42,512 nt of DNA. It comes from Patescibacteria group bacterium. GTDB lineage: Bacteria; Patescibacteriota; Minisyncoccia; Minisyncoccales; CAZWNE01. The notes beneath the pieces are model-generated. The model was not told where the DNA came from and ran no database searches. It saw nothing but the letters and a program-made list of their open reading frames with translations. A program made the position numbers and the translations under genes. The stretch spans positions 1-42,512 of the forward strand of contig JBBTTI010000040.1 of NCBI GenBank assembly GCA_038078735.1, in the 5' to 3' direction. Below are positions 2,460-25,794 of this stretch, piece after piece (the stretch's first letter is position 1; every line of letters begins with the position of its first letter).

Positions 2460-2483
2460 TTTAAGATAAGCTGTCTTTAAAAT

Positions 2484-2515
2484 CCGTCCCTTGCTCAGGG
2501 GCGGTTTTGTTTTTT
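2484..2515 (+). terminator. Rho-independent terminator
   Basis: Stem CCGTCCCT/AGGGGCGG followed by TTTTGTTTTTT. Confidence 0.6.
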
Positions 2516-2551
2516 AATAAATCTGCTAAAATAAATATAGAGAGATAAATA

Positions 2552-2568
2552 CGGAGAACCGTTCTCCG
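2552..2568. repeat. REP-like palindrome CGGAGAAC-C-GTTCTCCG, copy 1 (upstream of RAYT)
   Basis: Identical 17-mer at 2552-2568, 2776-2792 and 3297-3313. Confidence 0.85.
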
Positions 2569-2584
2569 TTAATTTTTATCAATT

Positions 2585-3286
2585 ATGCCAATTAAGCGAC
2601 CACAATTAGTTAATAACGAAATTTACCATATTGTAATCAGGGGAGCAGGAGATTCATTAATTTTTAAAAATGAAGACGATCGTTATCGTGCGATTTTTTC
2701 TCTTTATGAATTTAATACTAAGGGTTCAATAGAAATTAGAGAGCAGAGAAAAAAGCGTAAAATAATTAAAGCCTCCGGAGAACCGTTCTCCGATAATCGC
2801 AAACTATTAGTGGAAATTTGGGCTTTTTGGTTTATGTCAAATCACATCCATTTACTTTTAAAGCAGAAAAAAGATGGGGGGATCTCAGAATTTGTAAAAA
2901 AATTTGGCGCAGGTTATGTTGGTTATTTTAATAAAAAACACAATAGAAAAGGTCCTCTTTTTGCAAAATTTAGAGCAGTTCACATTAAAGATGATAAGCA
3001 GTTAATAACAGTCTTTGTTTATATTCATACTAATGGCATATCTTTAATAGAATCTAAATGGAAAGAGAGGGGGATTAGCAACCCCAAAAAAGTAATTGAA
3101 TTTTTAGAAAATTATAAATGGTCAAGCTTCCAAGATTATATAGGAAAAAAGAATTTTCCTTCGGTAACCAGTAGGGAGTTTTTATTGAACATAATGGGCG
3201 GCGAAAAGGGTTGTAAGGAAATTATTGATGATTTTGTAAGATATAAAAAAACTTTTAAGGGTTTCGATGAGGTTATTTTAGAATAA
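2585..3286 (+). mobile_element. REP-associated tyrosine transposase (RAYT, IS200/Y1 HUH family)
   Basis: Motifs YHIVIRG, MSNHIHLL (HUH), YFNKKH.RKG.LF, YIHTN and YKWSS. Flanked on both sides by the same palindrome. Confidence 0.85.
2776..2792. repeat. REP-like palindrome copy 2 (in-frame inside RAYT, SGEPFSD)
   Basis: Exact 17-mer match. Confidence 0.85.
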
Positions 3287-3296
3287 CCGAGAACAT

Positions 3297-3313
3297 CGGA
3301 GAACCGTTCTCCG
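3297..3313. repeat. REP-like palindrome copy 3 (downstream of RAYT)
   Basis: Exact 17-mer match. Confidence 0.85.
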
Positions 3314-3383
3314 TATTTTGTTGACAAAATAAGTTTATTTGTTAATCTCAAATTAGCTCTTCAAAAGAGCGTAAGGAGGAAAT

Positions 3384-3662
3384 ATGTTAGCTTGGCAGGG
3401 TTATAGTGATGGCTCGGGAGACTATTACATTAAAACAACGACGGAAAAGTGCAATGCCTGTGGTGAGTGTGTCAAGGTATGTCCGGCGAAGGTTTTTGAA
3501 GTTATCGAGAATGATTATGGTGATAGTGTCGCCCTAGTCAAGGATGACAAAAAGAAAAATATCAAATATCTTTGCAGCGGACAGTGCAAGCCAAACGCTA
3601 ATAGACCGCCATTACCGTGTGTAGTGGTCTGTAAGCCGGGGGCCATAGAACATACTTGGTGA
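3384..3662 (+). CDS. 4Fe-4S dicluster-type ferredoxin
   Basis: CNACGECVKVCP and C-x3-C...PCVVVCKPGAI motifs, with an AAGGAGG RBS. Confidence 0.8.
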   Translation: MLAWQGYSDGSGDYYIKTTTEKCNACGECVKVCPAKVFEVIENDYGDSVALVKDDKKKNIKYLCSGQCKPNANRPPLPCVVVCKPGAIEHTW

Positions 3663-3678
3663 ACTGGCAATTATGTCT

Positions 3679-3709
3679 CGGGCCGATCTTGTGTCGGCCC
3701 GCTTTTTTT
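3679..3709 (+). terminator. Rho-independent terminator
   Basis: CGGGCCGA/TCGGCCCG stem followed by T7. Confidence 0.75.
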
Positions 3710-3723
3710 GGTATAAATACTAT

Positions 3724-4941
3724 ATGTTTAAATCTGCGAGAAAAAGTATTTTTTTATTTTCCAGTTTAGTTTTAATTGCCGTTATATTCGCGGGAGGTTA
3801 TTTTTTCGGCCAATCCAGCGTTAAGCCGGAGATTATTTTTGGCGTTCAAAATCCGGAATTAGGCCAGCCGGCAGGCGCTGATTTTTCAATTTTTTGGGAC
3901 GCTTGGTCAAAATTACAGGCAAAATTCGTTAATAACGATAAGATGGATTTTCAAAAAATGATTTATGGCGCTGTCTCGGGTATGGTAAAGTCTTTAGACG
4001 ATCCTTATACGGTATTTTTTCCGCCGACAGAAAATAAAAAATTTCAAGATGAAATTAAAGGCTCTTTTGAAGGAGTGGGTATGGAGGTAGGAATTAAAAA
4101 AAATCAACTGCAGGTTGTTTCACCGATAGAGGGAAGCCCGGCTCAAAAAGCCGGATTAAGAGCCGGAGATAAAATTTTATTAATAAACAGCACTTCTACA
4201 TCCGACATGTCTTTGGAAGAAGCGGTTAATTTAATAAGAGGACCGAAGGGAACACGGGTAGCTTTGACGGTTATACGGCAGGGCTGGGATAAATCTAAAG
4301 AAATTAAAATTACCAGAGATGTTATCCAAGTCCCTTCTTTGAAATTGGAGTTTAAAGATGACGGCAAAATTGCTTATATCAAGCTTTCTCAATTTTCCGC
4401 TAAAGCGGGTAATGAGTTTGCCCAAGCGGCGGTGCAAATTTTAAACAGCCAAGCGGAAAAAATTATTTTAGATTTAAGAAATAACCCCGGGGGATATTTG
4501 GAAATTTCCCAAGATATCGCCGGCTGGTTTCTGTCTCCGGGTCAGATTGTAACAATTGAAGATTTCGCCGGCAAACAGGAGCAAAAAATTTACAAAGCTC
4601 AAGGCAATTATTGGCTGGAAAAATATCCTTTAGTAATTTTAATCAATCAAGGATCAGCTTCAGCATCCGAAATTTTAGCCGGCGCCCTAAGAGATGATAG
4701 GGGAATAAAATTAATTGGAGAAAAATCTTTTGGCAAAGGCTCGGTGCAGGAATTGGAAGAGTTAAAGGGCAGTTCTTCTTTAAAAATTACTGTAGCCCAT
4801 TGGTTGACCCCGAAAGGCCAGCTTATTTCCGAAATCGGATTGGAGCCGGATATTAAAATAGAAATAACGGAAAAAGATTATGAAAACGAAAAAGATCCCC
4901 AATTAGATAAAGCCCTTGAAATAATTAAAGAAATAAAATAG
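3724..4941 (+). CDS. Carboxyl-terminal processing protease, S41 family (CtpA-like)
   Basis: N-terminal TM, PDZ domain (GVG..V..PI.GSPA.KAG), [15 protein letters not shown] and [11 protein letters not shown] 3724 is preferred because 3673 overlaps the terminator. Confidence 0.92.
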
Positions 4942-4951
4942 AATAAGCAGT

Positions 4952-5401
4952 ATGAAAGTTATCTTGCTTAAGGATGTGGAAAAAATTGGAAAGAAGCATG
5001 AGATTAAAGAAGTGGCTCAAGGATTCGCCAGGAATTTTTTAATTCCCAATAGCCTTGCTAAAATTGCCACCAAAGAAGCTTTAATTTGGTTAGAAACTCA
5101 AAAAGAAATTGAAGCGAAAAAAGCAGAGGGTGAATTAAAAATATTCCAAGATAAAGCTACGGCTTTGGACGGCCAAGAAATAACCATGATTGCCAAGGCG
5201 GGAGACGAGGGTCAAATGTTTGAGTCAATCAATGCCGTAAAAATTGCCGAAAAATTAAAGGAGGCTGGTTTTGAAATTAAAAAAAGCCAGATTGTTTTAG
5301 AGGAGCCAATTAAAATATTTGGCGAGTTTCCGGTAAAAATTAAACTTGAACATAATTTAGAAGCGGAGATAAAAGTCATAATTACCGAAGATAAGCTATA
5401 G
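4952..5401 (+). CDS. rplI: 50S ribosomal protein L9
   Basis: [12 protein letters not shown]...[11 protein letters not shown], 149 aa. Confidence 0.96.
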
Positions 5402-5402
5402 C

Positions 5403-7049
5403 ATGGCTAGATATATTTTTGTGGCTGGCGGGGTGATGTCCGGGATTGGTAAAGGGGTGACAACAGCTTCAATCGGAAAAATTCTGCAAAGCAAAGGGTT
5501 CAAAGTAACCGCCGTTAAAATCGATCCTTATGTTAATATGGACGCCGGGACGATGAATCCGATAGAACACGGCGAGGTTTTTGTGACTGACGACGGGACC
5601 GAATGCGACCAAGATGTAGGGAATTACGAAAGATTTTTGGGAGAAAATTTAACTACAGATAACTATATTACCACCGGACGAATTTACGATACGGTTATTC
5701 GCAAAGAAAGAAATTTGGAATACGGCGGGAAATGCGTTGAAGTTGTGCCGGATATTCCGAACGAGGTAATTTTTCGCATTAAAAAAGCGGCTAAAATTTC
5801 AAGGGCCGATTTTGTTTTAATTGAAATCGGCGGAACGGTGGGGGAGTATCAGAATCTTTTATTTTTGGAAGCGGCCAGAATGATGCGCCTGCAAGAACCT
5901 CAAAATATTCTTTTTGTTTTAATCAGTTATTTGCCGGTGCCGGAAATGATCGGGGAAATGAAAACTAAACCTACTCAGACGGCCGTGCGGCTTTTAAACG
6001 AAGCGGGCATCCAACCGGATATAATAGTGGCCAGATCAAGGATTCCGGCAGATAATATTCGAAAAAGAAAAATTTCTACTTTTTGCAATGTTCACGAAGA
6101 AGATGTTATTTCTGCGCCGGACGTTGAGTCAATATACGATATTCCGATTAATTTTGAAAAAGATAATTTAGGAAAAATAATTTTAAAAAAATTTAATTTG
6201 CGGCCGAGAAAGAAAAATCTTAATGATTGGCGAAGATTAGCAGAGATAATAAAAAATACAAAAAAGAAAGTTAAAATCGGCATCGTCGGTAAATATTTTG
6301 AAACAGGCAGTTTTACTTTAGCTGATTCTTATATTTCAGTTATTGAAGCGGTAAAACACGCTGCCTTTTTCCATAAAGTAAGGCCGGAATTAACCTGGTT
6401 ATCTTCGGAAATTTATGAAAAAACTCCGGCAAAATTAAAGGAACTTAAAAGTTTTGACGGTATTATCGTCCCCGGAGGGTTCGGAAGCAGGGGAGTGGAG
6501 GGAAAAATAAAAACCATTGAATATTGCCGGAAAAATAAAATTCCTTATCTGGGTTTATGCTATGGTATGCAACTGGCGGTAGTGGAATTTGCCAGGAATA
6601 TTTGTCAGATGAAGGATGCTAATACTACAGAAATTATTAAACATTCTAAGTATCCGGTGATTGATGTTATGCCGGAGCAAAAAATTCTTTTACAGGAAAA
6701 AAGATACGGGGCAACTATGCGATTAGGCGCTTATCCTTGTTCGCTTCGAAAAGGCACAAAAGCTTATCTGGCTTATTCCAAAGCTAATTGGGGCAAGAAA
6801 AATAAAAAGGAAGAGATTTTAATCACTGAACGTCATCGCCACCGTTATGAGCTTAATAATGAGTTTAGAAAAGACTTAGAAGCTAAAGGATTAGTAATGT
6901 CCGGGATAAATCCGGAAAGGGATTTAGTGGAGATAATTGAGCTTAAAAACCATCCTTTTTTCATTGCTTCTCAATTTCACCCCGAACTAAAATCCAGGCC
7001 ATTAGACCCGCACCCTTTATTTAGAGAATTTATTAAAGCGTGTCTTTAG
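5403..7049 (+). CDS. pyrG: CTP synthase
   Basis: [49 protein letters not shown] and QFHPE. Confidence 0.97.
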
Positions 7050-9838: not shown

Positions 9839-10102
9839 ATATTAGACATTGAATGCTTGATAAAAACTACGAGGTTGATTATGGAAATGTCATAGGTGTC
9901 ACCTATGACATTTTTAGGTTTGTAGGATGTTAGGTACTCAGTGTCTAACATTCGCGCTCGTACATTTTTTAAGTTTTAAAAACAAAACCCTTATTAATAA
10001 AGGGTTTATGAGAGAGTGGTATATTCAGTGAAGTTTTTTTAGAGGAGTATTTTCTCCCTCTTTTGGAAAACTAATAATATAGTTGGACAATCATGTCCAA
10101 CT
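9839..10102. repeat. Intergenic cluster of unrelated short palindromes
   Basis: AAATGTCATAGGTG-T-CACCTATGACATTT (9885-9913, also at 25664), ATGTTAGGTACTCAGTGTCTAACAT (9927-9951), AGTTGGACA-ATCA-TGTCCAACT (10081-10102), and 9839-9862 which resembles 21181-21204. Confidence 0.75.
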
Positions 10103-11193: not shown

Positions 11194-11397
11194 ATGAAAA
11201 TAGAAAACGATCGCGAGAAGGATGGCGGTAATCTTAGAATTACCGATATAGAGGGCGATATGGGCGAATCAACTCGCTTAAATCTTCTTTTACAACCAGA
11301 TGGGGATGTAATTGTATCAATCTATAAAATTAAAGATGGATTGAATATGCCCCCGGTGAGTATTTATTTTTTACCGAGAGAGTGGTATTGCCTATGA
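11194..11397 (+). CDS. Small hypothetical protein, possibly truncated
   Basis: AAGGAGG RBS, 67 aa. The last 34 bp overlap the xer 3' end. Confidence 0.45.
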   Translation: MKIENDREKDGGNLRITDIEGDMGESTRLNLLLQPDGDVIVSIYKIKDGLNMPPVSIYFLPREWYCL

Positions 11398-12317
11398 ATA
11401 TCTCTTAATCTTTTAGAAGTGACGTGGGTATAAATTTGAGTTGTAGCAATATTCCTGTGACCCAAAAATTCCTGGACATTCCTTATATCTACCCCCTGAT
11501 TAAGTAGGTCCGTGGCAAAGCTATGGCGTAAAACATGGGGCGTTGTAGTGGCTGGAGAGCCCGAAATTAGGGCGTAGCGCTTCACAAGGGTCTCAATCGA
11601 CCTTGGACTCAACCTTTGGCCAACTTGCTTCTTAGGGCCCTTATAGCTGATAAAAAGGGCTTTTTCCTTATCTTGCCTGGTTCCCAGGTACTTTTTAAGG
11701 GATTCTATAACCCTATCTGAGAAATAAACCGTTCTTATGTGGCTTCCTTTGCCAACTATACTTATTTCAAGGTCTTTGGTGGCGGGGGTTATCTTTATTT
11801 GGTCGCGATTAAGGCTGACAAGCTCGGCTATTCTCATACCGGTTGAAAAAAAAGATTCAAGTATGGCCCGGTCTCTAAGGCCGGCTACGGTTGAAGTTTT
11901 TGGAGCCAAAATAAGTTTTTCTATTTGTTCTAAGGTAAGAAATTTTATAGCCTTATCGCTTTTCTCGCGGATTAATTTAATTTTTTCGGCGGGTAAGGAA
12001 ACGATATTTCTGTCGGCAAAATAATTTAAGAGGTTTCTAAGGGCTATAAGGTAGTAGTTTTGGGTGGATCTTTTTAATGGTTCTTTGGTGTTTTTATTAA
12101 AAGTTTGGGATAAAAAAACCCTATATTTCCAAATATGGTCTTCGGTGAGCTCGTGGGGGAGTAGGACATCAAAATGGTTATTTTCCAGCCATTTAGTAAA
12201 TCTTTTTAGAAATCTTCCGTAAGTTTCCTGGCTTTTATTACTCAATCCTTTCTCAATATCTAAATATTCTAAAAAATCATTAATATGTTTTATTATTGTT
12301 TTTGTGTCGTTTTTCAT
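11364..12317 (-). CDS. Tyrosine recombinase, XerC/XerD family
   Basis: N-terminal SAM-like domain, RDRAILE, TGMRIAEL, GKG, HVLRHSFAT and LGH...TTQIYTH. Confidence 0.93.
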   Translation of the reverse strand: MKNDTKTIIKHINDFLEYLDIEKGLSNKSQETYGRFLKRFTKWLENNHFDVLLPHELTEDHIWKYRVFLSQTFNKNTKEPLKRSTQNYYLIALRNLLNYFADRNIVSLPAEKIKLIREKSDKAIKFLTLEQIEKLILAPKTSTVAGLRDRAILESFFSTGMRIAELVSLNRDQIKITPATKDLEISIVGKGSHIRTVYFSDRVIESLKKYLGTRQDKEKALFISYKGPKKQVGQRLSPRSIETLVKRYALISGSPATTTPHVLRHSFATDLLNQGVDIRNVQEFLGHRNIATTQIYTHVTSKRLRDIHRQYHSLGKK

Positions 12318-12327
12318 ATGAGTAAAT

Positions 12328-12355
12328 ACTTCGGTTAAGCTACATTATGCGAAGT
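12328..12355. promoter_or_regulatory. dif-like Xer recombination site
   Basis: ACTTCGGTTAA-GCTACA-TTATGCGAAGT: 11-6-11 geometry, inverted arms and a TAA/TTATG inner core as in known dif sites. Lies 10 bp upstream of the xer start. Confidence 0.75.
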
Positions 12356-12410
12356 ATCCTATTTGTATAATAACAAGGCAAGAAGCCCTGTCAACCCCAT
12401 TCCCCTATAT

Positions 12411-12647
12411 TTAAATCGCTTCTCTTATTTTATCTTTGATAAATTCAACTAATTTATCTATCCAAGGAGTAACTAATCCTTTGTAATAATTAAAATCATC
12501 ATGGAACAGGGCGGTGAAAGCCAATTTAAATCCATCCCAAGAAGGATGTTGAAAAAAGCCGGAGAATTGGCTTACTTGCACCTTTCCCATAAAAACCGGA
12601 ACCAAGAGAAGTATTAAAAATAAAATAATAAGTCCTTTAATATTCAT
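12411..12647 (-). CDS. Small membrane hypothetical protein
   Basis: 78 aa with an N-terminal hydrophobic helix. Confidence 0.65.
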   Translation of the reverse strand: MNIKGLIILFLILLLVPVFMGKVQVSQFSGFFQHPSWDGFKLAFTALFHDDFNYYKGLVTPWIDKLVEFIKDKIREAI

Positions 12648-12673
12648 CGCCCTTTTATTTTAACAGATAATTA

Positions 12674-14128
12674 TTAGTCAAGCAACTCAATCGCTTTTTT
12701 AATCCGTTCCAAGGTCTTTTCTCTGCCTAAAATGGCGGCTACGTCAAAGGGCCCGGCCGAAGCCTTTTGCCCCGTCAAAGCCGTCCTTAATGGCCAAAGC
12801 AGCTGTCCCCTATCTTTCCCTTTCTCGGCTTCCGGCATTAAAATGTCTTCCAGATTTTCTTTATTCCAATTATTATTTTCTATTTTCTCCAATATTTTTT
12901 TTGAATTTTCCAAGCTTTGTTCTATCTCTTTATCCGACATATCTTTCCATTTTAACAATCCCCTATCATATTCTATGTCGTTAAAAAAGAAACCGGCAAA
13001 TTCTTTAATTTCTGAAAGTTTTTTCAATCGTTCCTGGTAAACCGAAACTATTTTTTGTAGATGTTTAACATCTACGCCTTCTTTTAGATAGGGCAAACAA
13101 AGTTCGGCTAATTTTTCAATAGGCAGTTGACGAATATAAAATCCGTTTAAATAATCCAATTTTTGAATATTAAAAATTGCTCCGCCCTTTTGCACTCTTT
13201 CCAAAGAAAAACTTTTAATTAAATCATCTAGAGAATAGATCTCTTTTTCACCTCCCGGGTTCCAACCCAGAAAAGCGATAAAATTAATTAGAGCCTCTGG
13301 TAGGTATCCTTTTTCTTGAAAATCTTTAATACCGACAGCTCCATCTCGCTTAGATAATTTTCCTCCATTTGGAGAGAGTATGACGGGTAGATGAATAAAA
13401 TTAGGAAGAGCCCAGTCGAAAGATTTATAAAGAAGAATGTGTTTAGGTAAAGAAGAAATCCATTCTTCGCCCCTGATAACGTGGCTAATCTCCATCAAAT
13501 GATCATCCACCACACTAGCCAAGTGATATGTCGGATATCCATCAGATTTTATAATTACAAAATCATCTAGAAAATTACTAAATTCGATTTCTCCTTTAAG
13601 GAGATCGTTGATTTTTATTTTTTCAGTTTTAGGAGCTTTGAACCTTATAATATGTTTTTTTCCTGCTTTTTTTAACTCAGAAACTTGTTCCAGCGTGAGA
13701 TATCTGCATCTCCCGTCATAATTTGAATTACCTCTACCTTGCGCTATTTGGGTCTTCTTTAGCATATCTAATCTAGCTAAAGAACAGAAACAATAATAAG
13801 CTTTCCCCGATTCAACTAATTTTTCTGCATATTTATTATAGAGAGATAATCTTTCAGATTGAAAATAAGGGCCAAAATTACCACCAACATTGGGCCCCTC
13901 TTCCCAATTAATAGATAACCATTTCAGATTTTTAACGATATCGTCAGTAGAACCCTCAATAAATCTTTTCCTATCCGTATCTTCGATTCTTAAAATCAAC
14001 TTACCCCCCATAGACTTGGCAAATAAATAATTAATTAGAGCTGTTCTTGCGCCTCCAATATGTAAAAATCCTGTTGGTGATGGGGCAAATCTGACTCTTA
14101 TTTTTTTGTTTTTTACTATCTTCTCCAT
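12674..14128 (-). CDS. gltX: Glutamate--tRNA ligase, full length
   Basis: RFAPSPTG.LHIGG, LRIEDTD, YYCFC, DGYPTYHLA.VVDD, IRGEEW, KLSKR and a C-terminal anticodon-binding domain (PLR.ALTG). Confidence 0.95.
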   Translation of the reverse strand: MEKIVKNKKIRVRFAPSPTGFLHIGGARTALINYLFAKSMGGKLILRIEDTDRKRFIEGSTDDIVKNLKWLSINWEEGPNVGGNFGPYFQSERLSLYNKYAEKLVESGKAYYCFCSLARLDMLKKTQIAQGRGNSNYDGRCRYLTLEQVSELKKAGKKHIIRFKAPKTEKIKINDLLKGEIEFSNFLDDFVIIKSDGYPTYHLASVVDDHLMEISHVIRGEEWISSLPKHILLYKSFDWALPNFIHLPVILSPNGGKLSKRDGAVGIKDFQEKGYLPEALINFIAFLGWNPGGEKEIYSLDDLIKSFSLERVQKGGAIFNIQKLDYLNGFYIRQLPIEKLAELCLPYLKEGVDVKHLQKIVSVYQERLKKLSEIKEFAGFFFNDIEYDRGLLKWKDMSDKEIEQSLENSKKILEKIENNNWNKENLEDILMPEAEKGKDRGQLLWPLRTALTGQKASAGPFDVAAILGREKTLERIKKAIELLD

Positions 14129-14159
14129 TATTTTATTAATATTTTAATTGTTATAAATA

Positions 14160-15230
14160 TTAACGCAAGGATGCTTGTGTGGTGTCATTTACAGATGTTG
14201 TCCATAGGGGGCAAATTGGAATTAAATCCCTACTACACTTATCCGTTGGAACACCGTACTTAAAATGATTATAAGCTGCACACCCGCCATTACAAATAAA
14301 CGCCCGAGAACAACGCTCACATTTTAGTGATACTTTATTGATTAAATTCAATTCATTGTTTTTGCCTTTATTAATAAAAAATCCTTTATCATTAATCAAG
14401 CCAAAATTTATGTCTTTATCTAAAAAAGCAGAACAAATGTAACATTTTCCATCGGGAAAAATTGCCAATCTCTCTAAATTTCTAGCAGTACACCCTTTGT
14501 AGCCTGATTTTTTCAATAAAGACAATTCATCTTTTTTAACAAAAGCTGGCGGATAGTATATCTTCAATTTGTTATTTATTTTTGAATTTAAAACATAATT
14601 CTTTAGATTACGTACAAACTTTAGCCACTCTTTATTGGAAAGTTGAAAATTGGAGTAATATCTACCATTGCCAGTAGGAGTAAAATAATGGAAAGACAGT
14701 AAATCTATTTGAAGATCGCTAGCTAGATTTATAATATTGGGAACATCTGCTACATTTTTTTTATTGATTGTGCAAATAATCCTTGTTTTAAAATTTCGCC
14801 CCCGAGCATCTTTTATGCTTTCAATTAAAGGGGAAAACGTATTTTTTCCTCTTAAAAATTCGTGTATTTCTCTAGATGATCCATCCAAACTGAATGATAA
14901 TGAGTCTATATGTCCGGGTAAAATTTTATTCCAAGCGCTTTCAGATACTAAACCATTGGAGGTTAGCACAACTAAATAATTTTCCCTTTTGCATATCTTT
15001 AAAATTTTATCTAACTCTGGATGAAGGGTGGGTTCTCCGCCCAAAAGATAAACTTTATAATGACCATAAAGAACCCTCATTAATTTCAAAATTCTTTCAA
15101 CATTTTCAGCAGGCATAATCTGTCCATTATGCAAACGTTTTCCCATATAACAATGCTTGCAACTTAATTGGCACTGGTTAGTTATATATAAAAATAAAAA
15201 CGGTTCGTATGTTTTATTGATCTTATTCAT
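14160..15230 (-). CDS. Radical SAM/SPASM-domain protein (paralog B)
   Basis: CQLSCKHC, GGEP, SLDG, and a C-terminal Cys set GC...PDG..Y.C...C..C.....C.GGC.A...C......C. Confidence 0.9.
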   Translation of the reverse strand: MNKINKTYEPFLFLYITNQCQLSCKHCYMGKRLHNGQIMPAENVERILKLMRVLYGHYKVYLLGGEPTLHPELDKILKICKRENYLVVLTSNGLVSESAWNKILPGHIDSLSFSLDGSSREIHEFLRGKNTFSPLIESIKDARGRNFKTRIICTINKKNVADVPNIINLASDLQIDLLSFHYFTPTGNGRYYSNFQLSNKEWLKFVRNLKNYVLNSKINNKLKIYYPPAFVKKDELSLLKKSGYKGCTARNLERLAIFPDGKCYICSAFLDKDINFGLINDKGFFINKGKNNELNLINKVSLKCERCSRAFICNGGCAAYNHFKYGVPTDKCSRDLIPICPLWTTSVNDTTQASLR

Positions 15231-15249
15231 AATATAAATTTAGTTTGAA

Positions 15250-16329
15250 TTATCTAAAATCATGTATTAAAGTCTGGGGTTTTTTATCCCAAGAGTATGT
15301 AGTCCATAAAATACAAAGCGGAATAATATTCTTATCACAAGAATAAAAATTTTTATAAGCATTAATATACGAAAAAGCTGCACACTCTCCAGAGCATAAG
15401 TTATTTAAACCACATCCAGTAATACAATAATTCTTTGGATTATAATACAAATTTAATTCCGAATATTCTTTATTAAAAGAAAAATACCCATTTTTTATTT
15501 TGGCTCCATATATATCATAGTCCATAAATAAGGGACAAAAATATATTTTACCGTCGGGCAAAACGTGGGGTCTATCTAAAGTTCTTCCTGGGCATCCTGG
15601 ATAGCCCCTTTCTATGTATTTTTCGATGTCATCTTTTTTGATAAAAGTTGGGGGATAATAAACAGCCATTCTACTTGTTGGAGGTGATTTTTCAATTGAA
15701 TTGTAGAAATCTATCCACTCAAGCGGCGATAACGGTTTTAAAAAATTAACAGCATTTCCTGTTATTCCTAAGTTATGAAATGAGAGCGTGTGGACTCCTA
15801 AATTTTCCAAAAAATTAATCATTCCCAATGCATTTTTTGAATTTATATTGGAAACCGTACACATTACCCGAACTTGTAGCCCATTATTAATGCCCGTTTT
15901 GATATTATCTATAATTTTATTAAAAGATTTCTTAGGGACAGATCTGATTTTTTGAAATTCTTCTGGGATCCATGAATCTAGGCTTATATTCAAAGATGCG
16001 ATTTTTTCCGCAGTTAAAATTTTAAAGATTTTTTTATCAAATAAACCATTGGTGCTTATTGTTATTGAATATTTTTTTTCAATTCCCGCATTTATTATTT
16101 CGTTTAATTGTGGATGCATAGTAGGCTCTCCTCCAATTAAATATAACTTATCGTGTCCGCCGGTCGTTTTGAAATAATCCAAGATAAACCTAGCGCTTGG
16201 AACAGACATTCTTTTTGCTCGATTCAATCTTTTGTTTCCCAAATAACAGTGCCTACATCTTAAATTGCAAGCTTCTGTAATATATAGAAATAAAAATCGC
16301 TCTTTGATATTTTTATATATTGGTTTCAT
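15250..16329 (-). CDS. Radical SAM/SPASM-domain protein (paralog A)
   Basis: CNLRCRHC, GGEP, STNG and SPASM-like Cys. Shares FLFLYIT, YYPP and P.C.LWTT with the neighbour. Confidence 0.9.
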   Translation of the reverse strand: MKPIYKNIKERFLFLYITEACNLRCRHCYLGNKRLNRAKRMSVPSARFILDYFKTTGGHDKLYLIGGEPTMHPQLNEIINAGIEKKYSITISTNGLFDKKIFKILTAEKIASLNISLDSWIPEEFQKIRSVPKKSFNKIIDNIKTGINNGLQVRVMCTVSNINSKNALGMINFLENLGVHTLSFHNLGITGNAVNFLKPLSPLEWIDFYNSIEKSPPTSRMAVYYPPTFIKKDDIEKYIERGYPGCPGRTLDRPHVLPDGKIYFCPLFMDYDIYGAKIKNGYFSFNKEYSELNLYYNPKNYCITGCGLNNLCSGECAAFSYINAYKNFYSCDKNIIPLCILWTTYSWDKKPQTLIHDFR

Positions 16330-17065
16330 TTTTGTTAATCTCTAAAAAACAATTAATATATGTTCCAAGGCATTGTTTATTTATCGCCTGTCTTTTTCTT
16401 GAATTACTCGGCAAATAAGCCTTTGGGCACAATCTACGAGACAAGGAATTACCAAACCATCTATTTAATCCTATCCCGACAGGAGTATCAAAGAATTTTT
16501 TTGTTTCACGATATATTCTTTGCATCCTTTCACTTCCTTTTATGTCTGACTCGCGAGGAAAAACTAATCGATTTTTTTCTTTTTGAATGCGTTCTGTATT
16601 GTTTTTCTTAAAATATTTTTTTGATCTTTGTATATATTTATTAAGTAATTTTTTATCTCCAGAAACTAATATTTTAGAATCCAAAAAAAATTTCATGGCA
16701 ACATCTCCCTTTCGCCATATGGATAGAATACAATCGGTATGATAGCAAGCGGTTTCTAAAATTTCTGGGAATTCATTTAAAATATATTCCGTTTCTTGAA
16801 ATAAATTATCTAGCGTGAGTTTGTCAAAAATTTCGCCTATATGTCCCGGCTCGAGTCCGTATTTTTTATGAAATTTTTCAAAGTATTTAGCATAAGTTAT
16901 TTCCTTATCGTAATCTTGATTTTTTAAAAGTACAAATATATCAATATCGCTATTGCTTTTTTGAGTATTTTTTGCATAAGATCCCCCGATGAAGGTAAAT
17001 AAAATATTATCACCGAAATGATTTTGTGTTGTTCGCGAAAGATCTTTTAAAATATTGCTCTTCAT
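16313..17065 (-). CDS. Pol-beta superfamily nucleotidyltransferase domain protein
   Basis: GGSYA......SDIDIFV (GS...DxD) motif. Confidence 0.75.
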   Translation of the reverse strand: MKSNILKDLSRTTQNHFGDNILFTFIGGSYAKNTQKSNSDIDIFVLLKNQDYDKEITYAKYFEKFHKKYGLEPGHIGEIFDKLTLDNLFQETEYILNEFPEILETACYHTDCILSIWRKGDVAMKFFLDSKILVSGDKKLLNKYIQRSKKYFKKNNTERIQKEKNRLVFPRESDIKGSERMQRIYRETKKFFDTPVGIGLNRWFGNSLSRRLCPKAYLPSNSRKRQAINKQCLGTYINCFLEINKNETNI

Positions 17066-17093
17066 GTTGATTAAAAAATTCTATTGGTTTCTT

Positions 17094-18545
17094 TTATTTT
17101 AAGCATCCGTTAGCCGCAGCTATACCGGAAACCATTGCCTGCAAAACTCCTTGTGCCAACCCCGTAGCATCGCCAGCTACATATATGTTTTTAACTGATG
17201 TTTCCATACTCGGTTTCAAATAAAGCTTATCCCATGAATTTTCAAGTTCAAGCCCCATTACTAGCATATTGTCTAAAATTTTTTTTCTAGTGTAAACATT
17301 CTTAGGAAGCGATGATAAGGAATATAATCTTTGAAAGATATATTCAAATGTTTTGCACAAAAAATCATGTTCTTCTTTATTAAAAAACACTGATAGATCA
17401 GAATTTTTTATATAATTTATTGATGGTAAAAATCCCAAAGATGCTTTAATTTTGTCAATAGAGAGCATTGTTTTAGATTTATTTTTAAAATCTTTATATA
17501 ATTGAAAAACTGGCCTCCCCCGATTTGGTAAATTTTTGTATGAAAATATAATTCTATTTATCCTATTTTTTATTTTATAATCTTCTTTGTTTAGTGATTC
17601 ATTTTTTATAATTAATGCAAAATTTCCGGGGCAGCGGTTATTATTTTTTTCTACCACTACGTGACCATCAAGCAAGGTATATGCCCCATAGTTGATTGTT
17701 TTTATACGCCCCCCGCCAATTCCGCCGCAGAAACAGAAAGTCTTTATCTTATATTTACCATTTTTATGAAAAGATAATTTTAAATCTGGATGAATTTTTC
17801 CAGCTTCTTTAAATAATTCTTTTGGCCCTTCAAACCTAAGACCTAAAAAAGGATTACTTTGTGAATGATTTATTCCTAAATCATGTACTGTTTTTCCACA
17901 CCACCTTAATCCATAGCGCCCTCCCGCAAAAATTATTTTATTTGCCAAGAGATTAATATTCATTTTATTATTAAGACAAAATATTTTAAAATTACTGCCT
18001 TCCTCTAATGGTTTGATAGAGACGACATTAGTATTTAAAAACAAATCTAAATTCTCTGTTTTTTTTAATTTTATATATGTTTTTTTTAAAAATAATTTTA
18101 CGTCATCAGCATTTAACGTAGCTACGGGATAACATTTTATATCTTTGAAAGGTAAAAAATTTTTCTCAGGAAAAACAAATTTTTTAGTCGCCTCTTTTTT
18201 AATAAATTTATTCAAAGCAATATTCATGTATTCGTTCGCCATTTTTTTCCCAAGCAAATCAACTAAATGTTTACCTGCTGGAAATTTTGATAATTTAACA
18301 GAATCACCATAGTGCAACGATCCACCGTAGCCCGAAATAACATTACATGGATTGCAATTCATGCATTCTTTTCTGTGATCAATAAAGCAATGGCGTTTTT
18401 TATAATCATGCCCAGCATCAATCAAAGCGATTTTTAATTTTTTATTCTTTTCGCCGATAATTGTTGCGGTAGAGATTCCAGCAGGGCCGCACCCAATAAT
18501 TAAAATATCATATACGGGTTTCTTCATTTTTTGGAATATGAACAA
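17094..18545 (-). CDS. Uncharacterised FAD-dependent oxidoreductase (COG2509-like) with Cys cluster
   Basis: IIGCGPAG, C...C..C.PC.VISGYGG, TFCFC.G.GG and ETS...IY.AGDATG. Start may be 18527. Confidence 0.8.
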   Translation of the reverse strand: MFIFQKMKKPVYDILIIGCGPAGISTATIIGEKNKKLKIALIDAGHDYKKRHCFIDHRKECMNCNPCNVISGYGGSLHYGDSVKLSKFPAGKHLVDLLGKKMANEYMNIALNKFIKKEATKKFVFPEKNFLPFKDIKCYPVATLNADDVKLFLKKTYIKLKKTENLDLFLNTNVVSIKPLEEGSNFKIFCLNNKMNINLLANKIIFAGGRYGLRWCGKTVHDLGINHSQSNPFLGLRFEGPKELFKEAGKIHPDLKLSFHKNGKYKIKTFCFCGGIGGGRIKTINYGAYTLLDGHVVVEKNNNRCPGNFALIIKNESLNKEDYKIKNRINRIIFSYKNLPNRGRPVFQLYKDFKNKSKTMLSIDKIKASLGFLPSINYIKNSDLSVFFNKEEHDFLCKTFEYIFQRLYSLSSLPKNVYTRKKILDNMLVMGLELENSWDKLYLKPSMETSVKNIYVAGDATGLAQGVLQAMVSGIAAANGCLK

Positions 18546-18551
18546 TTCTAT

Positions 18552-19472
18552 CTATTTCTGACGGCTTAGATTAAAAGAATTATTTATTTGGTTTATCTTT
18601 TTTTGAAAGTTATCATCAAGTATTGTTATAATTTTCGTTCTCGGACTGTTTTCCATAATAAGCATAGGCGGACAAGTAATGTCAACGATAAAAAGAGGAT
18701 CTTTGTAACCGTAAATTTTATATTTTCCTCCAGCGGCCACAAAAATAGCGTCGACTTTATTTAAAAAAATATTTATTTGTTGAATATCTATTATTTCAAT
18801 GTTTTTAATTTCCAGTATCCTCGCAAGCTCTTTTGATTTTTTCTTTTCAATATCAGCAATTACGATTGAATTTATTTTATCTTTAAGAGAATTGCAAGCT
18901 TTTGCGAATTCTTTTGATATCATACCCGCCCCAATAATCATAAAACTCTTCAAATTTTTATCGAAAGAATCGTTTATAATTTTCAATGCGATAGTGGCAT
19001 AATTATCATTATTGTAAAAATTATTTGATTTGCGAAACAAGTCGGAATTTTTTAAAGCTAAGTAAAAAATATTTTTAAGATTTGATTTTTCTTCAAGGTG
19101 AGATTCAAAAGTATTTATAACTTGCTCCCTTATTTGAAGCTCTCCTGTTATTTCTGATAATTCTCCCGAACAAAGATGCGTTAAACGATCTATAATATCT
19201 TTTTCCTGAAGTAAAATTTTTAATTTATTTTTTAAGAAAACGTCATAGATTTTTCTTAATTTGTCGTCAGTGTTAACAAAGATATAAATTTCAAACCGCA
19301 GACAGGTAAAAATAACGACGATCTCGTCTGAATAAAAATCAACATCTTTTATGATTTTTTCAAAAAAACCGTTTTCAATATTTTCCCCAATATCCTTCTT
19401 GGAAAACATTACGTGATCAAAAATTCCGGCAATAAAACTCGATCTACTTTTATAAGAAGAGTTGTCGGTCAT
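18552..19472 (-). CDS. Glutamyl-tRNA reductase (HemA)-like protein lacking the C-terminal dimerisation domain
   Basis: FTCLRFEIY (cf. STCNRxEIY, catalytic Cys), SG..SEITGE.QI..QV (cf. SGLDS...GE.QI.GQV), IIGAGMI Rossmann motif and VDITCP (cf. IDIAVP). Only 306 aa. Confidence 0.72.
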   Translation of the reverse strand: MTDNSSYKSRSSFIAGIFDHVMFSKKDIGENIENGFFEKIIKDVDFYSDEIVVIFTCLRFEIYIFVNTDDKLRKIYDVFLKNKLKILLQEKDIIDRLTHLCSGELSEITGELQIREQVINTFESHLEEKSNLKNIFYLALKNSDLFRKSNNFYNNDNYATIALKIINDSFDKNLKSFMIIGAGMISKEFAKACNSLKDKINSIVIADIEKKKSKELARILEIKNIEIIDIQQINIFLNKVDAIFVAAGGKYKIYGYKDPLFIVDITCPPMLIMENSPRTKIITILDDNFQKKINQINNSFNLSRQK

Positions 19473-19512
19473 TATTTTATAATAACACTGTTAGACAAAA
19501 AATCAACTCTTA

Positions 19513-20554
19513 TTATAGTTCTTTAATTTCCGAAAGTTTTTTTAGCCTTTCTTGGTATATGACCACGATTTTCTCAAGCGATCTTCTTCTCTGATGATAA
19601 TTGGCGGATATAAAATCCGTTTAAATAATCCAATTTTTGAATATTAAAAATCGCTCCGCTTTTTTGTACTCTTTTCAAAGAAAAACTTTTGATCAGCTCA
19701 TCTAAAGAATAAATTTCTTTTTCTCCGCCCGGATTCCAACCAAGAAAAGCGATAAAATTAATTAGAGCCTCTGGTAAGTAACCTTCTTTTTTAAAATCAG
19801 AAACAGCCGTTGCTCCGTCTCTTTTGGACATCTTGCTTCTATCCGGGGCTAAAATCATTGGAAAATGGCCGTATTCCGGCTGGGGAAATCCCAAAGCTCG
19901 CTGAAGCAGTATTTGTTTTGGAGTATTGGTAAAATGATCGTTTCCTCGGATAACATGGGAAATATTCATTTCAAAATCGTCTATCACGCCGGCTAAAGCG
20001 AACAGCGGCTGCCTTAAATTTTTAGCAATTACTATGTCCCCCACCAGCCCCATGTCAAATTCCGCTTCGCCTTTTATTGTGTCTTTAAATTTTATTTTTT
20101 CCGGTTCTATTTTAAATCTGATAACAGGCGATTTTTTTTCTTTTAATTTTTTTTCTACTTCCTCTTTTGACAAATTCCGGCAAGCGCCGACATATTTTGG
20201 CGCCTCTCCCCTGCTCTGTTGATCTTGCCTTTGGGCTTCCAGTTCCTCTTCTGAACAAAAACAATAATAGGCTTTATTCTCTTCTAAAAGTTTTTTAGTA
20301 TACTTTTCATAAATTTCCAGCCGTTCGCTTTGGCGAAATGGACCTTCGTCCCAATTAATTCCCAGCCATTTTAAACTTTCTATAATATCTTTCTCGTATT
20401 CCGGTCGCGACCTTTCTTTATCCGTATCTTCTATTCTTAAGATAAATTTTCCGTTTTTATTTCTGGCGAAAAGAAAAGCAAAAAGCGCGGTCCGGGCAGA
20501 TCCGATGTGCAAATTTCCCGTCGGCGACGGCGCAAACCTTGTGCGTATTTCCAT
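19513..20554 (-). pseudogene. gltX: Truncated/frameshifted gltX (catalytic-domain ORF 19574-20554 plus out-of-frame tail)
   Basis: RFAPSPTG.LHIGS and KMSKR present. ORF stops after 326 aa; another frame at 19513-19578 reads LEKIVVIYQERLKKLSEIKEL*, matching LQKIVSVYQERLKKLSEIKEF of the full copy. Confidence 0.8.
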
Positions 20555-20584
20555 ATTTTCATTCTATAACATATCATTTAAATA

Positions 20585-20935
20585 TCAAATTACTTTCCCG
20601 AGATCGGGTCTCGGGAAAGTAGTATTTTTTAGAAAATAAATAAGGCCTAGAGCTGCTTTTAGACAAACTCTAGGCCTTTTTTTATGGGCCAGTGAATGGT
20701 CCGGTATGTTCGTGCAACGGTCCAGGTAATATGTGCTTAAGGCTTCCATGAACTGCAAATGTTCTATAGTGGCGCTAAGCAGCTCGACTTCGCCTTCTTT
20801 TGGTTCCCGGCCGAGGATTTTTTTGATTTCTTCCCCAGAGGGTGCGAAAATTTTCTTCACCGCATCTTCCGGCCTCAGACCAAGCTGGACAAGGGCTTGC
20901 CTCATGGTTTCTATTCTTTCCTCGCTACTCTGCAA
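20585..20935 (-). CDS. Hypothetical protein
   Basis: Strong AAGGAGGT RBS before TTG. The C-terminus runs through a palindrome (FPRPDLGK). Confidence 0.6.
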   Translation of the reverse strand: MQSSEERIETMRQALVQLGLRPEDAVKKIFAPSGEEIKKILGREPKEGEVELLSATIEHLQFMEALSTYYLDRCTNIPDHSLAHKKRPRVCLKAALGLIYFLKNTTFPRPDLGKVI

Positions 20936-21057
20936 CTTACCTCCTTTCCCCAGTATACTTTACTAAAAATCCGCGATAACCGACAAGCGTCGGTTTTAAC
21001 CACGGAAAACTAATTCAATCATACACTTTATTTAAAAATTGTCAATGGCGCATTGGT

Positions 21058-21204
21058 AATAGTAATAACTACGCTATAGCAATGATATTACTACTAGAAT
21101 AACTTTGTTGTCCCGAGATCGGGTCTCGGGACGATCAATAACTTAGAAACTAAGTTTCTCAACTTGGAAACTCAGTTTCAATGTTAAACATTGAATGTTT
21201 GATA
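21058..21204. repeat. Intergenic cluster of palindromes/dispersed repeats
   Basis: 35-bp unit 21058-21092 recurs at 25760-25794 with 1 mismatch. Also GTCCCGAGA-TCGGG-TCTCGGGAC (21110-21132) and AACTTGGAAACTCAGTTTC (again near 21559). Confidence 0.75.
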
Positions 21205-21206
21205 AA

Positions 21207-21518
21207 TTAAAATATTTCTAATTGAGCGATTTCTTCTAATTGTTTGCTGGTTAAAATTTGGCGCTCCTGCAAAGCTTTAATTATAATTGCCCACATTTTC
21301 TTTTCTCTTTTTTCTTGGTGATCCCTAACGGTTTTTTCAGTGAGAAGAATGTCTAGCTTTTTTAACATATTATCCTGGCTAGTTAAAGTTTTGTTTTTAA
21401 AATCTTCAAGCTCTGTTTTTGTAGCAAAAGTCTCTTGCATCCAAGGAAATAAAACCTCTCGGTTGTATGAAACAAGAACTTCTAGGGTTAATGGCTTTTG
21501 GCTTTTATTGTTTTTCAT
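21207..21518 (-). CDS. Hypothetical coiled-coil protein
   Basis: Likely start MKNNKSQ at 21518; charged helical sequence. Confidence 0.6.
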   Translation of the reverse strand: MKNNKSQKPLTLEVLVSYNREVLFPWMQETFATKTELEDFKNKTLTSQDNMLKKLDILLTEKTVRDHQEKREKKMWAIIIKALQERQILTSKQLEEIAQLEIF

Positions 21519-21576
21519 ATTTTCGTCCTTATTATATCTTATTACAAAACTCTCTGTCAACTTGGAAACTCAGTTT

Positions 21577-25662: not shown

Positions 25663-25794
25663 GAAATGTCATAGGTGTCACCTATGACATTTCGACCTAT
25701 GACATTTCGATAAATTTTACTTTTCTAATAATTAACCTCTCAAGTTGATTATCGTATTGAATAGTAATAACTATGCTATAGCAATGATATTACT
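25663..25794. repeat. Palindrome/dispersed repeat cluster
   Basis: GAAATGTCATAGGTG-T-CACCTATGACATTTC (25663-25693) with a partial tandem copy, and the 35-bp repeat 25760-25794. Confidence 0.75.

Follow-up and report, generated by a model that had tools for sequence, protein, structure and literature searches.

A gene cassette with a short glutamyl-tRNA reductase-like enzyme and a chimeric glutamyl-tRNA synthetase at the gltX locus of a Patescibacteria group bacterium

Results

Gene content of the locus

Here, we describe a cassette of six genes on contig JBBTTI010000040.1 (42,512 nucleotides; this whole stretch is referred to as the window) from assembly GCA_038078735.1 of a Patescibacteria group bacterium, a groundwater bacterium whose genome of 706 kb is 99% complete. 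The cassette encodes a short protein resembling glutamyl-tRNA reductase (GluTR, HemA), a flavin adenine dinucleotide (FAD) enzyme, a nucleotidyltransferase (NTase), two radical S-adenosylmethionine enzymes (rSAM1 and rSAM2) and, at its end, a full-length glutamyl-tRNA synthetase (GluRS, encoded by gltX). From the first to the last gene the spacing is very tight, with gaps of 6, 28, 19 and 31 nt and one overlap of 17 nt (Table 1). The GC content of the five cassette genes lies between 0.28 and 0.32, compared with 0.385 for the genome and 0.372 for the window. The original prediction, made from the letters of the window, had described six tightly packed and co-oriented genes that are more AT-rich than the backbone; open reading frame (ORF) calls, gaps and GC values agree with this description, and the Pfam and NCBIfam families agree with the functions that it had assigned. 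It had overlooked the truncated second gltX, a direct repeat of ~180 nt and the chimeric nature of the full-length gltX.

Table 1. Coordinates of the cassette genes and of the gltX copies, parts and repeats in the window
Feature	Position	Strand	Description
HemA-like (short GluTR-like) gene	19472..18552	-	306 aa; Pfam GlutR_N + Shikimate_DH
FAD enzyme gene	18545..17094	-	483 aa; Pfam Pyr_redox_2/FAD
NTase gene	17065..16313	-	250 aa; Pfam Polbeta/NTP_transf_2
rSAM1 gene	16329..15250	-	359 aa; Pfam Radical_SAM
rSAM2 gene	15230..14160	-	356 aa; Pfam Radical_SAM
Full-length gltX (GluRS)	14128..12674	-	484 aa; tRNA-synt_1c + Anticodon_2
Cassette-derived 5' part of chimeric gltX	13300..14128	-	~nt 1-828; encodes the catalytic domain
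Host-derived 3' part of chimeric gltX	12674..13299	-	core repeat copy + anticodon-binding domain
Truncated host-type gltX	20554..19574	-	326-aa intact ORF, catalytic domain only; TIGR00464 487 bits, profile positions 1-323 of 470
Decayed tail of truncated gltX	19473..19573	-	host-type sequence with a 44-nt deletion; ends at the cassette start
Direct repeat (gltX core), upstream copy	19601..19780		repeat D1, DNA alignment
Direct repeat (gltX core), other copy	13125-13304		within full-length gltX

A chimeric gltX and an empty site

The truncated gltX upstream of the cassette has a host-like GC content of 0.387, and the N-terminal part of its product is 73% identical to the GluRS of G002, a genome of the same genus. 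No Anticodon_2 domain (PF19269) was detected in it with Pfam. This gene represents the 5' part of the original host gltX in a displaced position, and in its decayed tail a further repeat (D4, 19519-19572) is 76% identical to positions 13001-13054 in the full-length gltX. The two gltX copies are ~57% identical at the DNA level across the first 820 nt, before they enter the ~180-nt direct repeat, whose copies are ~92% identical by DNA alignment and 83-91% identical in nucleotide windows. On the protein level, identity is ~50% over the first ~260 residues, and the last ~65 residues are nearly identical.

Nucleotide windows place a switch of partner at ~nt 829 of the full-length gltX, close to window position 13300, and show that host-type sequence of ~nt 829-1130 is found in both copies. 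Residues 1-272 of the full-length GluRS are 68% identical to the cassette GluRSs of two metagenome contigs described below (L008 and L009) and 47-51% identical to the host type, whereas residues 337-484 are 78% identical to the enzyme of G002 and only 27-28% to the L008/L009 cassette type. The full-length gltX is a chimera which combines the catalytic domain of the cassette with the anticodon-binding domain of the host. With 529.9 bits for TIGR00464 (cut-off 289.95) and both PF00749 and PF19269 present, its product is a real GluRS, as the original prediction had it; the position of this gene at the operon end, however, reflects in the present genome the recombination of the cassette into the host gltX. 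No other class-I Glu/Gln synthetase domain was found in the genome beyond the two copies at the locus, and therefore the chimeric gltX is the only complete GluRS of the cell.

The corresponding empty site is found in G002, where gltX, present once and uninterrupted, lies between murG and a gene for a Xer-like tyrosine recombinase. The 5' part of this gene matches window positions 20540..19607, its 3' part matches 13309..12331, and the downstream order is the same as in the window, with the Xer-like gene followed by the next ORF. The assembly of the closest relative, G001, does not include gltX and gives no information on the empty site or the age of the insertion. In the window, the Xer-like gene (12317..11364, reverse strand) lies directly downstream of gltX, and its product scores 218 bits, which is below the XerC and XerD cut-offs of 330-335. 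Since this gene is syntenic in the genome with the empty site, it is a host gene and not an integrase of the cassette. In the insert itself (~13300-19600), the five enzymes and the 5' part of gltX make up the whole gene content, and no site-specific recombinase or integrase was found in it. An integrase-driven island was rejected, given that the Xer-like gene lies outside the insert and is syntenic in G002.

There is no sign of misassembly at the cassette. The stretch is reproduced without any difference by Logan contigs from four runs of two studies (the source sample may be among these runs), and one contig of 6365 nt spans 13273-19637 in two runs. Over the cassette stretch, the Logan contigs break only at the repeated core, where the depth rises; in run X1, the depth of the cassette is 16.8 compared with 18-19 for the flanks. 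A joint of 14862 to 18431 with a 21-letter side, which occurs in two runs, was taken as a relative or as a repeat artefact.

Recurrence of the module

Related loci were collected in two ways: metagenome contigs with a profile of the HemA-like protein, two of which were fetched, and 49 genome loci with a profile of the FAD enzyme. The original prediction had named synteny elsewhere as a check, and the module recurs in both metagenome loci, one of them reduced, and in 17 of the 49 genome loci. Metagenome contig L009 carries genes for a helix-turn-helix (HTH) protein, HemA-like protein, FAD enzyme, NTase, two rSAMs and GluRS in the order of the window. The reduced locus on L008 consists of genes for a HemA-like protein, a 247-aa NTase-like protein, one rSAM and GluRS; the 247-aa protein keeps the GS...DxD motif, with a BLASTP match of only E 0.13. 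The genome loci were counted by the set FAD-NTase-rSAM-rSAM, and 16 of the 17 are actinomycete and one (L029) belongs to a Bacteroidota metagenome-assembled genome (MAG) of the Cyclobacteriaceae. Their proteins are 34-52% identical overall to those of the window (NTase 34-42%, rSAM1 ~51% in 16 loci, rSAM2 ~47%), with L027 being aberrant due to an rSAM1 of ~29% identity and an NTase ORF of 675 aa. The other 32 loci contain distant homologues of the FAD enzyme (24-38% identical) without the partner genes.

Of the 17 loci, 16 have a GluRS gene beside the module, on the opposite strand and convergent, in one case as a fragment at the contig end. Ahead of the FAD gene, 13 of the 17 have a HemA-like gene in which the catalytic motif is kept. 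In the three loci from the Candidate Phyla Radiation (CPR), the cassette is located directly upstream of a co-oriented gltX. All three actinomycete genomes that were checked have a separate housekeeping gltX besides the cluster copy. In a GluRS tree (FastTree, tblastn-guided ORFs), the actinomycete cluster enzymes form a tight clade, in which pairwise identity is 74-87%, compared with 40-43% to the housekeeping copies of their own genomes, and the CPR cassette GluRSs form a clade of their own among the CPR GluRSs. Within a sample of 401 genomes of the phylum (GluRS search tally 307/401, in which the unpublished genome G192 is one row; no further result draws on this genome), the best non-self identity to the catalytic part of the cassette-type GluRS is 57-58%.

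A mosaic was also seen in a Streptomyces housekeeping GluRS (L070, G442:C4:623400-625400). Its N-terminal part is 82% identical to the housekeeping GluRS of another member of the Streptomycetaceae, and its C-terminal domain is 35% identical to that enzyme and 58-66% identical to cluster-type GluRSs. These identities suggest that cluster and housekeeping gltX may exchange domains in actinomycetes as well, or that the C-terminal domain of the cluster enzymes may come from such a lineage.

Several of the module loci are plasmid-borne (L028, L030 and L057). In Nocardia (L031), a TrwC relaxase/helicase gene (1577-5731) lies beside the module, and in the Cyclobacteriaceae MAG (L029) a gene for an Eco57I-like type II restriction-modification methylase (17617-19176) is found nearby, so that the surroundings of these two loci resemble mobile or defence islands. 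Conserved flanking genes were not seen among the 17 loci, in which the gene calls of the high-GC loci are crude. Genes for GNAT and NUDIX proteins occur near the module at differing positions on L008 (4267-4716 and 6140-6661) and L009 (8856-9317 and 9735-10241) and also in the three Kitasatospora loci L019, L021 and L028 (L066 is a Kitasatospora plasmid). As they are sporadic and not present in the other loci, we rejected them as members of the module.

The HemA-like protein

The HemA-like protein reaches 58.4 bits for TIGR01035 (hemA), which is below the cut-off of 209.55. Nevertheless, its Rossmann domain is recognised (PF01488, E 7.7e-9), and C57, situated in a T-C-x-R-x-E-x-Y motif, falls on the catalytic Cys when aligned to Arabidopsis GluTR (4n7r) and on the position of C48S when aligned to 1gpj. 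This cysteine is invariant in 16/16 sequences and, together with the whole motif, in 15/15 cross-phylum sequences. In the latter set, which covers three phyla, T56, C57, R59, E61, S106, E111, Q117, R147, Y158, G181 and G183 are all invariant; G181 and G183 belong to the Rossmann domain. Besides, the stretch S..(G/A)E.Q...Q aligns with the second motif of GluTR. Pfam gave no match to the dimerisation domain GlutR_dimer (PF00745) in the 306-aa protein. The Atlas model has a template modelling (TM) score of 0.75-0.80 to GluTRs over the first two domains, with query residues 3-306 set against GluTRs of 400-450 aa. By its sequence, the protein is a GluTR-type enzyme, and it departs from HemA in the missing dimerisation domain, the score and the pathway context.

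In a collection of 5.8 billion proteins, 16 relatives were found, which are ~300-320 aa long and 46-61% identical, one being from a 'Candidatus Pacebacteria' MAG. A search of genome contigs with the HemA-like profile returned 600 pattern matches with no relative among them. Searches of 40 relatives of the host and of a further 400 genomes from the phylum did not find the protein, the only match being the host genome itself. In the ESM Atlas, there are several more clusters of short proteins (257-342 aa) that combine GluTR_N with a Rossmann domain, from Actinomycetota, Chloroflexota, Bacteroidota, Bacillota, Pseudomonadota and Nitrososphaerota. Such short enzymes of the GluTR type could form a broader group that is so far unstudied.

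In the 99%-complete host genome, hemB, hemC and hemL are absent, while the same searches were positive in 11-14 of 14 control genomes.

FAD enzyme, nucleotidyltransferase and radical SAM enzymes

The second enzyme is an FAD-dependent dehydrogenase of the COG2509/VP0956 kind. It has invariant cysteines at C47, C55, C58 and C61 (C-x7-C-x2-C-x2-C) and at C265 and C267, and its model (predicted local distance difference test, pLDDT, of 86) matches best the fold of VP0956 (3nlc, E 9e-18), an uncharacterised protein from structural genomics. Among its 225 homologues are full-length proteins of Kitasatospora, Streptomyces, Nocardia and Saccharopolyspora with ~35-38% identity and generic names only. 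In one natural protein of 739 aa (P0141), the FAD enzyme (residues 4-462, 36% identical to that of the window) is fused to the NTase (residues 479-735).

The NTase exceeds the Pfam cut-offs for Polbeta/NTP_transf_2 and has an invariant motif (G27 G28 S29 ... D40 x D42), four invariant cysteines (C107, C112, C213 and C232) and a helical C-terminal part. With its profile, 45 clusters were found at E<=1e-30 among 1.84 billion representatives. Aligned with VIA-align over residues 1-164, its fold gives middling Z scores to aminoglycoside nucleotidyltransferases (ANTs) and related enzymes: 8.0 for ANT(3'')(9), 7.8 for AAD(9), 7.8 for MntA and 7.3 for ANT(4'). Foldseek returned no match for the model at E<=0.001, the best E being >= 0.009.

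The two rSAMs are paralogues with 35% identity. Both combine CxxxCxxC with at least eight invariant C-terminal cysteines in a SPASM-type pattern. rSAM1 has C21/C25/C28 and nine further cysteines, all invariant in 9/9 sequences, including a C-terminal CX3CX5CX3C variant. rSAM2 has C20/C24/C27 and the motif C304-x2-C307-x5-C313-x3-C317, with the Cys set invariant in the 9-10 sequences aligned; this is CX2CX5CX3C, which we take to be the pattern of SPASM auxiliary clusters. The Pfam SPASM model did not match either protein at E<=0.01, and therefore the assignment is based on the Cys motif. The nearest solved structures, with E values of 1e-9 to 1e-6 overall, are MoaA (3.6e-8) and BlsE (1.6e-7) for rSAM1 and CteB (2e-9), GDGT-MAS, SuiB and viperin for rSAM2. 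In NCBIfam, both proteins stay far below the families of tetrapyrrole synthesis (AhbC, AhbD and NirJ: 47-75 bits, cut-offs 500-650) and below viperin (NF038283: 66.3 and 62.7 bits, cut-off 180). PADLOC reported weak pVip matches for the rSAMs, restricted to the rSAM core, and weak CD-NTase/PDC-S09 matches for the NTase N-terminus; for the HemA-like and FAD proteins there was no PADLOC match.

The original prediction had argued that Glu-tRNA is diverted into a pathway other than tetrapyrrole synthesis. This idea has gained support from the synteny, from the missing hem genes and from the scores of the rSAMs, which do not group them with AhbC, AhbD or NirJ.

Predicted interaction of GluRS and the HemA-like protein

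A complex prediction of the GluRS with the HemA-like protein gave interface scores (ipSAE) of 0.81, 0.80 and 0.81, with 0.04 as the best of three controls. The mark used for ipSAE is reached by 58/80 solved complexes and by 2/110 mismatched pairs; the inputs were our own alignments (14 rows for GluRS, 15 for the HemA-like protein), for which these benchmark counts hold roughly. In the model, the partner has a pLDDT of 85, and the runs share at least 98% of the contacts. The predicted contact involves GluRS residues 114-133, 140, 152 and 157, all within the cassette-derived part. Deletions that are specific to the clade of actinomycete cluster GluRSs, relative to the housekeeping enzymes, fall into this segment as well. 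A sequence search of the PDB with the HemA-like profile returned only entries named GluTR, and to our knowledge no GluRS-GluTR complex has been solved; for this reason, it seems unlikely that the prediction simply reproduces a known complex. Taken as a prediction, the model supports binding of the cluster GluRS to the HemA-like protein.

Surroundings of the cassette

The cassette is flanked by core genes, namely murG, ftsW, a Mur ligase gene, uppS, a polyprenyl synthase gene, pyrG and the gene for L9. The sole tRNA gene of the window is a tRNA-Lys at 456. Within the module, no tRNA gene was detected in the nine loci scanned; L008 has four unrelated tRNAs upstream. A scan for promoters and terminators was little informative (59 promoter-like sites, 43.5 +/- 6.2 expected), with one 10-of-12 promoter-like site directly upstream of the truncated gltX.

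Between murG and the truncated gltX there is a stretch of ~1 kb (20555-21576) that G002 lacks; in that genome, only 49 nt separate the two genes. The stretch contains two ORFs of ~116 aa without any family as well as a 21-nt palindrome, which is present twice (20596-20616 and 21111-21131) and occurs again on contig C11. Short repeats at ~21110-21180 are multi-copy in G001, and there the Logan contigs break and the depth is raised. This region looks like a small repeat-flanked insertion. Furthermore, an intergenic palindromic repeat of ~30 nt at ~9884-9913 is found again at 25663-25692 and, in either orientation, on six or more further contigs of the genome; it resembles a REP-like element or a shared terminator.

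Discussion

A proposed Glu-tRNA-fed pathway in a mobile module

The anatomy of the cassette, the chimeric gltX, the empty site, the synteny across phyla, the absence of heme genes and the conserved catalytic residues are direct observations. The explanation that fits them best, to which we assign a probability of roughly 60%, is that the module encodes a compact and horizontally mobile pathway which is fed by Glu-tRNA and does not lead to tetrapyrroles. The GluRS catalytic domain of the module type would charge tRNA(Glu) and hand it over to the bound short GluTR-like enzyme, so that the substrate could be channelled. This enzyme would take the glutamyl group onto Cys57 as a thioester and might release it by NAD(P)H-dependent reduction as glutamate-1-semialdehyde or a derivative. 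The Cys-rich FAD dehydrogenase, the NTase, which resembles ANT and minimal nucleotidyltransferase (MNT) enzymes, and the two SPASM rSAMs could then process either the aldehyde or the enzyme-bound thioester. The product would be a small molecule, most probably a derivative of glutamate that is linked to a nucleotide or heavily rearranged.

The role of the GluRS in such a pathway is supported by its adjacency across phyla, by the cassette-derived catalytic domain and by the complex model. As the GluRS in actinomycetes is an extra, convergent copy and the adjacency extends across phyla, the link is not just an effect of the landing site. Concerning the entry of the module into the present genome, the cassette may have recombined within a conserved stretch of ~180-300 nt of the only gltX of the host, in a Campbell-type single crossover. 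The donor would have been circular or otherwise homologous and would have carried the five genes together with a cassette-type gltX 5' part and a stretch of gltX homology. Such an event would leave behind a displaced 5' fragment of the host gene and a chimeric, essential gltX that is transcribed at the operon end.

Several points weigh against this explanation or limit its details. A HemA-like gene was not found in four of the 17 genome loci. In one of these, L034, the contig ends; in L027, L031 and L032, upstream sequence exists with no match to the HemA-like protein or its motif, and the GluRS gene is kept. Therefore, the GluRS may serve beyond feeding the reductase, or these clusters may be decaying, which the aberrant NTase ORF of L027 would fit. 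Conversely, L029 has the five genes and no GluRS gene within the 10-kb flanks. In the FastTree analysis, the cluster GluRSs of the two phyla do not form one clade; a co-transfer of the GluRS with the module across phyla would be conjecture. A conserved transporter or regulator was not seen in the flanks with the crude gene calls, which would be unusual for a secreted metabolite. The fold matches of the NTase are middling (Z <= 8), and SPASM enzymes mostly act on peptides, yet no precursor gene was found. The insertion mechanism is deduced from a single empty site; moreover, the repeat copies differ by 8-17%, and for this reason an older insertion followed by gene conversion is equally possible. 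Finally, substrate and activity of the module are predicted from its genes, and so is the kind of its product.

Alternative explanations

The presence of a dedicated GluRS could also be explained by self-immunity. According to this idea, the cluster would produce an antibiotic, a glutamyl-adenylate mimic that inhibits GluRS, by joining reduced glutamate to a nucleotide with the NTase and tailoring it with the rSAMs and the FAD enzyme. The cluster GluRS would be the resistant copy, and in a host with a small genome the sensitive catalytic domain would simply have been replaced. We regard this as unlikely, although several observations fit: the second, highly divergent GluRS of the actinomycete clusters (seen in each of the 3/3 genomes checked), the exchange of the catalytic domain in the CPR host with the tRNA-binding domain being kept, and the combination of a reductase with an ANT-like adenylyltransferase. 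GNAT and NUDIX genes beside some clusters (L019, L021, L028, L008 and L009) can be added to this list. Self-immunity genes for an aminoacyl-tRNA synthetase (aaRS) in organisms that produce natural aaRS inhibitors, and detoxification of the microcin C core by the acetyltransferase MccE, are both described in a review (PMC7916415). The GNAT and NUDIX genes are however sporadic and not conserved, and the compound is purely hypothetical. A conserved exporter was not seen in the flanks, again with crude gene calls, and the positions that separate cluster from housekeeping GluRSs are not common to both phyla. Besides, the complex model turns the GluRS into the partner of the reductase and thereby already explains its presence, even if the two roles are compatible.

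A more specific version of this idea is a poison-and-antidote unit, which would convert Glu-tRNA into a glutamyl-adenylate-like inhibitor of GluRS to which its own catalytic domain is immune. The recipient, here through exchange of the catalytic domain of its only GluRS, would become dependent on the unit and could harm neighbours or its host cell. We consider such a unit similarly unlikely.

That the module is compact, mobile and spread across phyla, with plasmids, a relaxase neighbour and no conserved flanks, would also suit an anti-phage defence or conflict system that acts on tRNA(Glu) or, like viperin, makes a modified nucleotide. The type II restriction-modification methylase near L029 and the weak pVip and CD-NTase/PDC-S09 matches point in the same direction. 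These PADLOC matches cover the generic rSAM core and the N-terminus of the NTase, and none was obtained for the HemA-like and FAD proteins; the viperin scores in NCBIfam (66 and 63 bits) stay well below the cut-off of 180, and no sensor or effector domain was recognised. A defence function is therefore quite improbable.

Even less probable is a role in the maturation of a ribosomally synthesised and post-translationally modified peptide (RiPP) or a protein, in which the SPASM rSAMs would modify a peptide and Glu-tRNA would serve to add or alter a residue, in the manner of LanB or PEARL enzymes. The gaps of at most 31 nt in the cassette of the window offer no space for a small precursor ORF, upstream of the module on L009 there is only the HTH gene, and no LanB or PEARL domain was detected with Pfam or NCBIfam. 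The SPASM Cys motif does speak for this function, as do the nearest solved structures, which include CteB, SuiB and SkfB, and the best NCBIfam matches, among them the maturases ScmF, PapB and WgkB; the scores for these three are, however, far below the cut-offs.

A further possibility is that gltX is nothing but a landing pad, i.e. that an element with a function unrelated to Glu-tRNA targets this gene and carries a replacement for its 5' end. In the window, gltX is indeed interrupted by the cassette, and both direct repeats and a displaced 5' fragment are present; the position directly upstream of a co-oriented gltX is common to all three CPR loci. Such an element would hardly account for the 16/17 loci in which the GluRS gene lies on the opposite strand, additional to a housekeeping gltX in the three genomes checked. 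In addition, the product of the first cassette gene has retained the active-site signature with which GluTR handles a glutamyl ester, and the complex model supports binding of the GluRS. We therefore see very little room for this explanation, which is already disfavoured. A remnant or variant of tetrapyrrole synthesis, such as an alternative route to heme or heme d1, would match the GluTR-like first enzyme and the weak AhbC, AhbD and NirJ similarities of the rSAMs, but with scores far too low for these families, no hemB, hemC or hemL in the genome and no HemA-like protein found in 40 relatives or in a further 400 genomes from the phylum, it is rejected and close to refuted.

Comparison with known systems

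The nearest known system is the C5 entry into tetrapyrrole synthesis, in which GluRS is followed by GluTR (HemA) and glutamate-1-semialdehyde aminomutase (GSAM, HemL). Both systems pair GluRS with an enzyme of the GluTR fold, and the reductase of the module keeps the nucleophilic Cys, the glutamate-recognition motif and the Rossmann domain for NAD(P)H. In contrast to GluTR, it has no dimerisation domain and is 306 aa long rather than ~420. Furthermore, hemL, hemB and hemC are absent here, the partners are a Cys-rich FAD enzyme, an NTase and two SPASM rSAMs, and the GluRS is encoded by the module and predicted to bind the reductase directly. Both competition for Glu-tRNA and organisms with two GluRSs have been described in work on A. 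ferrooxidans (PMC4284751).

A dedicated extra aaRS beside an enzyme that consumes aminoacyl-tRNA is the feature which the module shares with clusters of the valanimycin type. The differences are that the consuming enzyme of the module is a thiol reductase of the GluTR fold and not a transferase, that the other enzymes differ and that, in the CPR genome, the dedicated synthetase has merged with the housekeeping one. The valanimycin cluster reportedly has its own seryl-tRNA synthetase, VlmL, together with VlmA. LanB dehydratases and PEARLs likewise use Glu-tRNA or other aminoacyl-tRNAs outside translation, and their clusters are often rich in rSAMs. With its two rSAMs and its predicted use of Glu-tRNA, the module would resemble them in both respects, but neither a LanB or PEARL domain nor a precursor peptide was found in it.

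Genomic islands at tRNA and tmRNA genes insert into a gene and carry a replacement for its end. As in these islands, direct repeats derived from the target gene lie on both sides of the insert described here, and the target is restored to an intact form. In contrast, the target is an essential protein-coding gene, and the element supplies the 5' two-thirds of it, with the whole catalytic domain coming from a different lineage. Moreover, the repeats of ~180-300 nt are only 83-91% identical, and the insert has no integrase. The second, divergent aaRS and the occasional GNAT neighbours recall producers with immunity aaRSs and microcin C (MccE/MccF), with the difference that there is no known inhibitor here and that the GluRS is predicted to dock on an enzyme of the pathway. 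The part of PMC7916415 available to us names no natural GluRS inhibitor.

In literature searches, which had most subscription journals and supplements outside their scope, neither the module nor any GluTR-like enzyme outside tetrapyrrole synthesis was found to be described; the original prediction had likewise not recognised the gene combination. The set of enzymes is undescribed. Its kind is known, namely an aminoacyl-tRNA-dependent pathway with a dedicated synthetase, and its carriage by domain replacement is unusual.

Implications

The locus is a clear natural case in which a domain of an essential aminoacyl-tRNA synthetase was replaced by recombination with a mobile element. GluTR chemistry removes an amino acid from its tRNA as an enzyme thioester and reduces it. 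Since we found no described use of this chemistry outside tetrapyrrole synthesis, its probable occurrence alongside a dedicated GluRS in a module that is conserved and mobile deserves attention, all the more as the carriers range from actinomycete plasmids to a groundwater bacterium with a genome of 0.7 Mb and no heme pathway. If the module were a poison-and-antidote unit, it would be the first pathway to a natural GluRS inhibitor and the first biosynthetic GluTR chemistry outside tetrapyrroles, and it would provide an episymbiotic small-genome bacterium with a weapon. The predicted association of the two proteins points to a possible new channelling complex of GluRS and a reductase. With only six small genes, which are also carried by culturable Streptomyces and Kitasatospora, the module offers a testable entry to what may be a new aminoacyl-tRNA-dependent pathway.

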